Origin: Octopus sinensis
Lineage: Eukaryota
DNA length: 24,228 nt
Direction of reading: 5' to 3'
Assembly: GCF_006345805.1 (NCBI RefSeq)
Contig: NW_021836485.1
Span: 1 to 24,228 of the forward strand
In this document: piece by piece, positions 3,766 to 23,161 of the stretch
Position numbering within the stretch: the stretch's first letter is position 1
Layout of the letters: every line of letters starts with the position of its first letter
Notes under the pieces: generated by a model
Told to the model about the DNA's origin: nothing
Database searches by the model: none
What the model saw: only the letters and a program-made list of their open reading frames with translations
Position numbers and translations under genes: made by a program

Positions 3766-3995
3766 CACACACACACACACACACACACAACACACACATA
3801 ATATACACATGTCTATACATGTATGCAAATATACACACGCACACATATATATATATATTTATACACATATACATATACTCTCATATATATGTATGTGTGT
3901 ATGTACGTGTGTCTGTATCTGTATAATGTATGTATGTACATGTGTGTGTGTATTTGTGTGCGTATGTGTATTTGTGTGTGTGTGTGTCTGTGTGT

Positions 3996-4052
<57 letters not shown>
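3766..4052. repeat. (CA)n/(TA)n/(TG)n compound microsatellite
   Basis: Direct reading. (TG)n resumes at 4611-4702 beyond the inserted element. Confidence 0.95.
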
Positions 4053-4054
4053 CA

Positions 4055-4244
4055 GGGGTGTAGCGAGCTTAAGGGGGCTCTGGTTAGAGGTAGTACCTTT
4101 GGGGTCTTGAAGCTGCACCTTGCCAGGGTTCGTCGTGTTGACGGGCATCACTGACCCTCATTCACCTCCTGATCTCTCACTTGATGGCTCTTAAGGCCAC
4201 ACTCCGGCACCCCACTTCAACTGGTGGGCTAAACCAAGTGAGAG
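4055..4244 (+). ncRNA. HDV-like self-cleaving ribozyme fold
   Basis: P1 GGGGTGT 4055-4061 / ACACTCC 4199-4205. P2 CTCTCACTTGAT 4174-4185 / ACCAAGTGAGAG 4233-4244 (11/12 paired). P3 GGC/GCC with 7-nt L3 TCTTAAG. P1.1 GG 4206-4207. P4 CCCAC/GTGGG. J4/2 CTAA with catalytic-position C4229. Confidence 0.75.
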
Positions 4245-4610
4245 GATGGTCTTAACACAGTACTCGTAGGCGAACGACTCCGGGTAATAGTTTCCAAAGT
4301 GTCCCCAGCTAGGGCGGGGGAACCTGCTCAGGTCAACGGACAAGTATTCGCGGCCAAGGCGTGTTTCAAGTAGCTGCATACGGTTGTGGTTAACAGTTTA
4401 GAGAGGAATGGGCGACGCTAGACTAACCTGCGTATGATACATTCATGATCATGACAATCAGACCAGAATCCATAATTGATCGGTCGTTGCCCGGATTGCC
4501 GATTCACAGAATGCAACAGAAGACCTAGGAAGAGTGCGAAATTCGGTTGCGACGACATCAACGAATATCCCAACGACCACACGGTCAAGGGATGGGAGGA
4601 GGAAGAAGAC
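4055..4610 (+). mobile_element. Short non-autonomous retroelement: ribozyme-headed 5' part plus RTE-like 3' tail
   Basis: GC-rich island interrupting (TG)n. 5' end coincides with ribozyme G1. 3' part encodes remnant NATEDLGRVRNSVATTSTNIP and ends CCCAACGACCACACGGTCAAGGGATGGGAGGAGGAAGAAG, like RTE 3' termini. Confidence 0.6.
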
Positions 4611-4643
4611 GTGTGTGTGTGTGTGTATGTGTGTGTGTGTGTG

Positions 4644-4678
<35 letters not shown>

Positions 4679-4915
4679 TATGTGTGTGTGTGTGTGTGTG
4701 TGTTCTAGCAGCCACGTGATTCTCGATCCGATACCACTATGTAGCTACTTATTTTTACATTTTAACTGTCCTTTCTTCTCTTTTTCCCAACAGAACGAAG
4801 CCATTTGTTTGTTTGTTTTTTTATTCCTCTAAGTTGAGAGCTTCTACGTTGTCGTCACTTGACCTGTTGAAAGTAGCAGGCAATGTTCCCTTAAATTACA
4901 TCCCTAAATTACAAA

Positions 4916-6027: not shown

Positions 6028-6071
<44 letters not shown>

Positions 6072-6077
6072 ATATAT

Positions 6078-6766
6078 TAATAATTAAATTAGAGACAAAA
6101 CCACTATTAGGCAAATCATACAATGAAAAACTTAAGCAATACATAAGATTATTTAATTTTATATTTAAATATATAAACAAATTATTAAAAAAATATAATT
6201 AATATATCACTACGATCGTTTCATGGCTGTTAATTTCTTTAATTTTCGAGTTACAGTCATTCATCAGGTGGTTTAATATCTAAATATAATCAATATTTTT
6301 AAGATATAAATAATATATATAATATAATATAATAATTTTACTTATAATAAACTCTATTATCAAATCTGATTATATCGAAATCGACTATAATGTTAAATAT
6401 TAACTTTAATTTATAAGGTAGGAAACCCATAATCTAATATCAATATTAGTCTATATCTAATTACATAAATATTTAAAATGACTAATATATATAAATTATC
6501 AATGAAATATAATAAATTATAATCAAGATCTAAAATAATCTCTATAAATATTGTATATAATGAAAAACCTAATAAATTAATTTTTCATATTTAAAGATGA
6601 ATAGCTAATTTCAAAATACAAATAAACTAACTTAATTGCTCTATTTTGTATTGGAGTATGATTATAGACATTTATATATCTATTTATTTATAATATATGT
6701 GGATGTGTGTGTTTGTATAAGTGGTATATGTGTATATGATGATGTTGTGTATAATAAAGAAATATA

Positions 6767-6806
<40 letters not shown>

Positions 6807-6960
6807 AATATTTTATAATTAAAACATAATTATAATTAGGGTTCACTAATTCCTTCGCCACATACCGAATTTAGAAATAGGAGTTAAAAATTCCTTTTCT
6901 ACTACTGTAAGAATCTCCATTACGGTAACATACTTTTTTTATGAAGGCAAAGAGAAAACC
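6078..6960 (-). mobile_element. AT-rich ORF-less hammerhead-bearing element, probably a non-autonomous Penelope-like derivative
   Basis: Contains a minimal type I hammerhead and is bounded by (TA)n tracts. No RT/EN homology seen. Boundaries approximate. Confidence 0.45.
6208..6270 (-). ncRNA. Minimal type I hammerhead ribozyme
   Basis: Minus strand: cac CUGAUGA augacugu-loop-acagccau GAAA cgaucg UA gug. Intact core boxes, GUA triplet, palindromic stem III (ACGAUCGU), 3-bp stem I. Confidence 0.8.
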
Positions 6961-7009
6961 AATGAATCAACACGACCAGGAGTAACTATATACGCGTTTC
7001 ACCCTATTT

Positions 7010-15417: not shown

Positions 15418-15729
15418 TCTGCTAATCTGCTGTCGTCTGCTAATCTGCTGTCGTCTGCTAATCTGCTGTCGTCTGCTATTCTGCTGCCGTCTGCCAATCT
15501 ACTGTTGTCTGCTAATCTGCTGTCGTCTGCTAATCTGCTGTCGTCTGCTAATCTGCTGACATCTGCTAATCTGCTGTCGTCTGCTAATCTGCTGTCGTCT
15601 GCCAATCTGCTGTCGTCTGCTAATCTGCTGTCGTCTGCCAATCTGCTTTCGTCTGCTAATCTGCTGTCGTCTGCTAATCTGCTGTCGTCTGCTAATCTGC
15701 TGTCGTCTGCCAATCTGCTGTCGTCTGCT
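15418..15729. repeat. 18-bp minisatellite (TCTGCTAATCTGCTGTCG) x17
   Basis: 17 units counted from the ADDSRL translation, with few variants and no indels. Confidence 0.95.
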
Positions 15730-19319: not shown

Positions 19320-20165
19320 TCATACTCTCCACTCCAATTAGGAAGAGGAAAAAGGACGAAACCCATAAACTGACCACAGTCTGTTTACTCTATATCAAAA
19401 GCCTCTCGGAAAAGGTACAAAAAATATGCGGTCCAAATGGCATCAGGGATGTATTCAGGAGTAATACAATACATCTCAAATATCTCCTCCAGGTAAAAAC
19501 CACCCATAGAAGAGAATAAGACCAAAAACTGCGTGTACTCCATCCCATGCAGTTGCGGTAGGGTGTCTCCCCCTTAAAATAAGAGTAAAGGAACATCATA
19601 AAGCTGTGATACGAGGGGATATTGAAAAATCGGGTACAGCCAATCATGTATGGAGAAACGGAGACCATCTTCCCCTGTGGGATGAAGTTAAAATAATAGA
19701 CAGAGAACGCCACTGGAAAATACGAAAATTAAAAGAGGCAGCATATATGCTAGGTCACAATAACCTCCTAAGTAGATCTAGTGCAGATATGAATGTAATA
19801 TGGGAATTAAGAAAAGATAAAATATTAGGTTTATAAGCTCAAAAATTAACTCTATAATTGCCCACGGTCTTATAGTGTAGTGGATAAGAGCGTGGGCTAC
19901 AGACCCTCGGGTTCTGAATTCAATCTCAAGCAGGAACTTGAGAAATAAAATCAACAAAAAATAACATCAGCAAAAAAGAATACCTTAGGAATGAGAACAG
20001 AGTACCCCATTGGTCAAATAAAGGGTTGGGTTCGAAATTCCACCAGAACACCTGATGAAGGCTGGAAAGTACATCAGCCGAAACATTGTGGCAGCAACAA
20101 ACAATGTGAGGGCACCTATCCGTCCATTGAAAATTATATACTATTTCTAATATTTCGTGAGTATG
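19320..20165 (+). mobile_element. 5'-truncated Penelope-like element: GIY-YIG relic plus pseudo-LTR region
   Basis: Frameshifted LYIKSLSEKVQKIC..., NCVYSIPCSCG, LKIRVKEHHKAVIRGDIEKSGTANHVW...WDEVKIIDRERHWKIRKLKEA, followed by a hammerhead motif. Confidence 0.88.
20049..20090 (+). ncRNA. Minimal hammerhead ribozyme, probably inactivated
   Basis: cac CUGAUGA a ggcug-loop-cagcc GAAA ca uu gug. Stem II is perfect, but the stem III pair is broken (AACAUU instead of palindromic AACGUU). Confidence 0.65.
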
Positions 20166-21832: not shown

Positions 21833-21935
21833 TAGGGTTAGGTTTAGGGTTAGTGTTAGGGTTAGGTGTTAGGGTTAGGGTTAGGGTTAGGGCTAGGGTT
21901 AGGGGTTAGGGGTTAGGGTTAGGGTTAGGGTTATA

Positions 21936-21968
<33 letters not shown>

Positions 21969-22531
21969 ATAGGGTTTAGGGTTAGGGTTAGGGTTAGGGT
22001 TAGAGGGTTAGGGTTAGGGTTAGGGTTAGGGATTAGGGTTGAATGTTTAGGGTTTAGGGTTAGGGTTAGGGGTTAGGGTTAGGGTTAGTGTTAGGGTTAG
22101 GGGTAAGGGTTAGGTTTAGGGTTTGGGTTAGTGTTAGGGTTTAGGGTTTGGGTTAGTGTTAGGGTTTAGGGCTTTTGTTAGGGATAGGGTTCGGGTTAAA
22201 GGTTAGGGTTAGTGTTAGGGTTAGGGTTAGGGTTAGGGTTAGGTTTAGGTTTAGGGTTAGGATTAGGGCTAGGGTTTAGGGTTAGGGTTCATGGTTAGGG
22301 TTAGGGTTAGCGTTAGGGTTAGGGTTAGGGTTAGGGGTTAGGGTTAGGTTTGTGTTAGGGTTGTGTTAGGGTTAGGGTTAGATTTAGGGGTTAGGGTTTT
22401 TGTTAGAGTTAGTGGTTAGGGTTAGGTTTAGGGTTTGGGTTAGTGTTAGGGTTTAGGGTTTTTGTTAGGGTTAGGGTTCGGGTTAGAGGTTATGGTTAGT
22501 GTTATGGTTAGTGTTAGGGTTAGGGTTAGGG

Positions 22532-22572
<41 letters not shown>

Positions 22573-22997
22573 GGTTAGGGTATAGGGTTTAAGGTTAGGG
22601 TTAGGGTTAGGGTTAGAGGGTTAGGTTAGGGTTAGAGGGTTAGGGTTAGGGTAAGGGTTAGAGTTAGAGTTAGGGATTAGGGTTGAATGTCTAGGGTTTA
22701 GGGTTAGGGTTAGGGTTAGGGGTTAGGGTTAGGGTTAGTGTTAGGGTTAGGGATTAGGGTTAGGTTTAGGGTTTGGGTTAGTGTTAGGGTTTAGGGTTTT
22801 TGTTAGGGTTAGGGTTCGAGTTAGAGGTTAGGGTTAGTGTTAGGGTTAGGGTTAGGGTTAGGTTTAGTGTTAGGGTTGTGTTAGGGTTAGGGGTTAGGGT
22901 TAGGTTTAGGGTTTAGGTTAGTGTTAGGGTTTAGGGTTTTTGTTAGGTTTAGGGTTCGAGTTAGAGGTTAGGGTTAGTGTTAGGGTTAGGGTTAGGG
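21833..22997 (+). repeat. Degenerate interstitial telomeric array (TTAGGG)n, about 1.16 kb
   Basis: TTAGGG units with TTAGTG, TTTAGGG, TTAGGGG and TTCGGG variants. Non-telomeric DNA on both sides. Confidence 0.95.
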
Positions 22998-23161
22998 TAT
23001 TACTGTATTGAACAATTACAAGCCGGTGAGTAATATGTAATTTCTAATTATCCATATCGTCACTTTTGAGTTTCCTCGTCGACACGCCACGATGCGACAG
23101 TATAGGCATGTTGTGTTTGTTTCCTTTTGTGGCCTGGTCTTTTCTCGAATGTCTATAGGCT

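Follow-up and report, generated by a model that had tools for sequence, protein, structure and literature searches.

HDV-like ribozymes of RTE elements were reportedly described by Ruminski in 2011, and Agam-2 presumably belongs to an RTE. Bipartite RTE LINEs that have lost their ORF (RTESINE1/2, WALLSI3, MAR4_MD, RTE-N2_Lch and Bov-A; PMC5786205) consist of the 5' and 3' ends of an RTE LINE, and Kojima (2018; PMC5786205) noted that such elements usually retain the LINE 5' end and that a 5' ribozyme is predicted for RTE families, and raised the link to a ribozyme head as an open tendency. Elements that are internally deleted, headed by a ribozyme and mobilised in trans are also represented by the R2 SIDEs and the R2/R1 hybrid SIDEs (PMC3414825) and by the trypanosome elements RIME and NARTc (named in PMC5786205).

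The octopus element described here belongs to a class that is already described (RTE ribozymes, R2 SIDEs, RIME/NARTc). It resembles R2 SIDEs, RIME and NARTc in its internal deletion, its ribozyme head and its putative mobilisation in trans, but it belongs to the RTE clade, is dispersed rather than rDNA-specific, and is apparently extinct. Like the RTE LINEs of PMC5786205, it joins the 5' and 3' ends of an RTE LINE, has no tRNA head and ends in a microsatellite tail; it is, however, longer (~570 nt) and retains a whole 5' UTR together with the beginning of the ORF and ~45 codons of its C-terminus. The Ceph-SINEs (PMC5786205) share RTE 5' UTR sequence with it, but in them a tRNA forms the head and the UTR piece is an internal one, whereas the octopus element is without tRNA and begins at the ribozyme. 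In layout, the ribozyme itself is closest to the drz-Agam-2-1 type (PMC4908430): both have a nested double pseudoknot, a long structured J1/2 (P1.2) with short linkers, an extended P2, and G+1 as the 5' end of the element, and the copy studied here departs from this type by G25A, by a lengthened linker and by the U-G pair of its P1.1.

The window, by which we mean the whole stretch of 24,228 nucleotides of Octopus sinensis DNA that was analysed (contig NW_021836485.1), contains one copy of this element, and the HDV-like fold at its head is real (Table 1). All helices occur in nested double-pseudoknot order where the preliminary description had put P1, P2, P3, L3, P1.1, P4 and J4/2, and every one of these coordinates was confirmed. 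J1/2 measures 112 nt, as had been said; the pairing proposed within it (4066-4070 with 4110-4114) is specific to this copy, involving a 10-nt insertion and a substitution at 4110, neither of which occurs in the family majority. The fold had been seen at the 5' edge of a GC-rich insertion; the edge does lie at 4055, and the insertion has to be extended to ~4610. GT arrays flank the element (3941-4047 and 4611-4703), and the target duplication of the window copy itself is not resolvable inside the GT repeat.

Table 1. Features of the element copy and of its HDV-like head in the window.
Feature	Position	Strand	Remarks
Whole element copy	4055..4610 (end ~4610)	+	Bipartite non-autonomous RTE; sits within a (GT)n microsatellite
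HDV-like ribozyme fold	4055..4244	+	Predicted cut 4054/4055; predicted catalytic C4229
P1	4055-4061/4199-4205	+	7 bp including one G-U; G+1 opens P1
P1 5' strand	4055..4061	+	Same sequence as the family majority
10-nt insertion	4062..4071	+	Absent from the majority; extends the linker between P1 and P1.2; apparently shared by the X7 ortholog
J1/2 domain	4072..4173	+	Window copy with 15 substitutions; the family majority forms a long P1.2-like stem here
Core P2/P3/L3/P1.1/P4/J4/2	4174..4244	+	L3 changed at 4191 (C22U), 4194 (G25A) and 4195
P2	4174-4185/4233-4244	+	11/12 paired, one A-C
P3	4186-4188/4196-4198	+	3 bp
L3	4189-4195	+	A (4194) at the place of G25
P1.1	with 4206-4207	+	One C-G and one U-G
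P4	4211-4215/4224-4228	+	5-bp helix
J4/2	4229-4232	+	C-N-A-A pattern with C4229
Rest of RTE 5' UTR	4245..4444	+	First ~430 nt of the family 64% identical to the 5' end of the APE-bearing RTE L267
Decayed RTE ORF start	4445..4496	+	~17 first codons; stops at the internal-deletion junction
C-terminal end of the RTE ORF, decayed, plus purine tail	4498..4610	+	3' segment without its first 30 nt

Elsewhere the window contains an interstitial telomere-type array (21833-22998; a 6-nt unit repeated ~188 times with 80% matches), a stretch in which an 18-nt unit occurs 17 times in tandem, with one open frame per strand (15418-15729), and a 108-aa open frame without a Pfam match (19510-19836), which resembles the terminal part of a Penelope-type GIY-YIG element. 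No convincing mitochondrial frame was present in the AT-rich stretch near 6060-7000.

We gathered the family from the source genome (2.7 Gb), each search returning at least 40-47 matches, and reduced 83 loci with the 5' part to 53 distinct copies, which form the sample for the family counts. The family is a repeat of ~570 nt whose similarity runs from 4055 to ~4610 and which ends in a (GGAA)n-type tail; its copies are dispersed and show both the microsatellite tail and target duplications. ARAGORN predicted no tRNA gene in the window, a weak test if a tRNA-derived head has decayed, and the head of the element aligns to an RTE 5' end and not to a tRNA. Outside CpG sites the copies diverge from the family majority by 11-19%, except for two short ones (8.6% and 28%), and the window copy, with 16% and with 18 of its 23 CpG sites kept, is typical of the family. 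A degenerate 29-nt core motif was found at five places with one mismatch and nowhere exactly, and no young intact copy was seen; from this we infer an old and small family, which probably numbers on the order of a hundred copies.

Both parts of the element are homologous to RTE LINEs. The final ~135 nt, when translated, give an RTE C-terminus (~45 last codons). Among 20 fetched loci, nine are similar to the family only from position ~433 onward and carry RTE RT/C-terminal coding sequence upstream of it; five further loci show the same pattern, and 14 junctions coincide at one place. These loci sharing only the 3' part are decayed, 5'-truncated copies of the partner LINE. The C-terminus of a full-length RTE protein from public data (P0119; 1029 aa, with APE and RT) matches 47 of 55 sequences (the 53 copies, the window and the family majority). 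P0119 agrees with the 3' peptide of the element at 68% over 31 aa and with the peptide before the junction at 61% over 18 aa, the latter being weak alone (E 0.02-0.03). A search of the source genome with the N-terminus of P0119 led to locus L267, which is identical to the 5' part of the family at 273 of 424 positions (64%) from the first bases onward (score 305, maximum of 200 shuffles 109); downstream of this part follows an endonuclease ORF that is 59% identical to the N-terminus of P0119. The 3' piece of L267 resembles L245-L258 and not L141-L150, which assigns the locus to a sister RTE family, and no second copy of it was found in the source genome at the search sensitivity used. L267 (87-319, 1000-1680) is rearranged, an inverted 3' piece adjoining its 5' end, and L246, from the same family, likewise contains an inverted endonuclease segment.

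Because RTE homology is present at both ends, with an RTE LINE sharing the 3' end as far as a sharp junction and the 5' part homologous to an RTE 5' UTR and ORF start, the element is an RTE 5' UTR and ORF start fused to an RTE ORF end and tail. The window copy has a 30-nt deletion at 4497/4498, i.e., at this junction. We are highly confident that the element is a bipartite RTE with an HDV-like head, in line with the earlier proposal that the fold heads the 5' end of a non-LTR element.

The 5' end of the direct parent was not found, every partner fragment being 5'-truncated in upstream walks. The best 30 loci of an RVT_1 search for the partner represent a different LINE type, 20 chromosomal RVT_1 loci gave no strict-descriptor match and no 5' homology, none of 16 relatives of P0002 had a 5' match, and none of the six loci of metagenome relatives of P0119 extended to the 5' UTR. 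The head could derive from the ribozyme of another RTE family fused to a LINE 3' end, so that the element would be a hybrid and not the product of a simple internal deletion. This would agree with the lack of any locus joining the exact 5' part of the family to the endonuclease domain of the partner, with the origin of the sole APE-linked homologue in a sister family (64%), and with the precedent of the R2/R1 SIDEs in Drosophila (PMC3414825). However, the two halves correspond to opposite ends of one kind of protein (P0119, P0102), and a missing 5' end is expected of an old, low-copy, 5'-truncated partner, and we consider a hybrid origin unlikely.

As the preliminary description had anticipated for the 5' ends of the copies, family similarity begins at G4055 and target duplications end there. 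In a sample of 38 near-complete copies (39 of the 53, minus the window copy), G is found in 3-9 copies at upstream positions and in 17-22 copies at +1 to +4, where conservation is only 45-58%, and identity climbs to 84% at +7. The alignment places the family boundary at G+1 (G4055), with some copies seemingly a few bases shorter. Exact duplications of at least 6 nt that end no more than 2 nt from G+1 were present in 8 of the 30 copies having both ends (null mean 1.9; 0 of 2000 re-pairings). The signal was weaker in a 5-nt version of this test (11 of 30 against 6.5 under the null; 58 of 2000) and in a 7-nt version (4 of 30 against 0.8; 15 of 2000).

The ribozyme of the family majority is more canonical than that of the window copy: P1 consists of seven Watson-Crick pairs and P1.1 is C-C/G-G. 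The majority has the U20-G25 reverse wobble feature of L3 (U20 in 43 and G25 in 44 of the 53 copies), which the window copy, with A at 4194, lacks. The A-C mismatch of P2, taken for damage in the preliminary description, is also present in the majority and is a feature of the family instead. The C at the catalytic position (C75; window C4229, family position 165) is retained in 30 of 53 copies. Preferential mutation of this C, considered post hoc, was not supported: 18 of 48 copies carry a substitution there, compared with 20% for C overall, but it shares this high level with two further C sites, and a site elsewhere with an identical 5-nt context is changed in 14 of 41. The nested minimum free energy structure of the majority includes the native P1 and P3, and its J1/2 forms one long stem (P1.2) with linkers of 1 and 3 nt beside a 12-bp P2, in agreement with the layout of P1.2 with short linkers and long P2 that activates an HDV-like ribozyme (Webb 2016; PMC4908430). 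In the sister RTE at L267, P4 is still paired with three pairs altered on both sides (read by eye), four of the seven pairs of P1 are mismatched, and P2 has no clean pairing. The ribozyme of the master copy was very probably active.

The window ribozyme differs from the majority by 22 bases and the 10-nt insertion, and in L3 three of seven bases are changed (C22U, G25A and C26G). In the HDV-like ribozyme of C. briggsae, no cleavage was observable in 60 s with G25A (PMC13635239). In a nested folding model, which does not represent the pseudoknot, the 5' strand of P1 pairs into J1/2 with a probability of 0.90, against 0.0 for the majority; since native P1 stacking (-12.9 kcal/mol) outweighs what the rival pairing would gain (-6.7 kcal/mol), this misfolding is a possible trap and not a certain one. 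A contig of run X7 (organism label C) spans 4050-4407, differing at 10 letters and having 6 gap letters, and by our reading of the depth table it has the same insertion and L3 changes together with an additional P1 wobble at 4200; the insertion is therefore old and shared. A contig of run X3 is identical across 4092-4405. No RNA run was listed as carrying the locus, which speaks neither for nor against its expression. Given G25A, the two further L3 changes and the insertion in J1/2, the window copy is probably slow or dead, as the preliminary description had suspected, and that it would be much slower than the master is a reading we hold with good, though not full, confidence.

The window copy might instead be a live ribozyme retained by its host under selection, with a non-canonical L3 that has A at the place of G25 and G one place on. 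It is the sole copy of the 53 whose five helices are largely intact (28 of 29 pairs, the next best copy keeping 26), its three changes at paired positions all preserve pairing, and the locus is present in runs under other organism labels. Neutral simulation, however, yields 28 of 29 pairs in 0.5-0.7% of single copies and with a probability of 0.22-0.31 for the best of 53, so that the intactness of a copy chosen for being intact lies within best-of-53 chance and was rejected as a sign of selection. Moreover, three of seven L3 bases including G25 are altered, divergence is typical of the family, the X7 ortholog has the further change in P1, and no gene was identified on the 24-kb contig. We therefore regard a live window copy as very improbable; if true, the U20-G25 rule would have a natural exception here, in the form of an exapted retroposon ribozyme shared by related species.

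A relaxed HDV descriptor, composed post hoc with the sequence already known, found 4055-4244 as its single match on either strand of the whole window and matched 2 of 3000 dinucleotide shuffles of 4055-4610; a search of this kind had been proposed in the preliminary description. Rfam matched no ribozyme family in the whole window or in 4000-4700. A search model (R1) run on 44 sequence sources, source genome excluded, recovered only the window, which was itself in the training set. Covariation among genomic copies, which had been looked to for support, was absent: the helices scored 0.158 against 0.175 for shuffled data in 20 of the 53 copies, picked for intact cores, in which P1 pairs are kept at just 61%, partly owing to 5' truncation. 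This does not refute the ribozyme reading, because the copies are dead and decay after insertion from one master. A chance arrangement in GC-rich sequence with no ribozyme past, to which the missing Rfam match and covariation could point, has almost no probability given the two matching shuffles, the more canonical majority, and the coincidence of the P1 start with the family boundary and the end of the target duplications.

We think it very likely that the fold heads an old retroposon without genes of its own, assembled from both ends of an RTE LINE. Its master likely cut its own RNA at the first G and was likely copied in trans by RTE protein, and the window copy is predicted to be a slow or dead descendant. 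By analogy with what is established for R2, L1Tc and RTE elements (PMC6765202, PMC3414825, PMC5786205), the master copy would have been transcribed by read-through from host promoters, and self-cleavage dependent on C75 and Mg2+ would have left G+1 as the 5' end of the RNA. The reverse transcriptase-endonuclease of an RTE would then have recognised the LINE-derived last ~135 nt in trans, and element copies would have been inserted by target-primed reverse transcription. The family would subsequently have become extinct, its copies, including the one in the window, presumably decaying neutrally.

Other LINE families of the source genome were encountered in the course of the analysis. A second RTE family (L096:1016-1115, at C16:29092515+, and L225-L244) starts at G+1 of an unrelated HDV-like sequence, exactly in 14 of 21 loci and within one mismatch in 18 of 21. 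It is younger, its top copies being 91-97% identical, and its fold has a 7-bp P1, a short J1/2, an L3 with G at place 6, a U-U as the first P3 pair, and a long P4 with a 5-nt subfamily indel; judged by sequence, it is the best candidate for a live ribozyme in the source genome. At the 5' end of a third RTE family (L270, L271, L274), a P4-like hairpin is followed by CUAA and a P2-like strand, with P1 and P3 not resolved by eye, and its core is possibly a variant one. A very young RTE family (L272, L273 and others) has open frames of 1123 aa and near-identical 5' UTRs of ~700 nt, and in a relaxed scan its 5' end yielded no HDV fold. The best RVT_1 matches (L061-L090) are near-identical LINE ORFs of ~870 aa, all on small unplaced contigs, and may represent a very young family or the sequence of another organism within the assembly.

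No such cephalopod ribozyme turned up in the papers surveyed; the word 'ribozyme' does not occur in PMC9115989 and PMC13282606, nor 'octopus' in the accessible portion of PMC5786205. The family may already be catalogued in Repbase, Dfam, the supplementary sequences of Kojima or octopus repeat libraries. The octopus element supplies an invertebrate instance of the rule by which non-autonomous elements derived from RTE retain the ribozyme head, and here this link is accompanied by target duplications at the predicted site of cleavage and by the layout of P1.2 and long P2. The younger RTE family represented by L096 is the more useful lead, as its head may still cleave.
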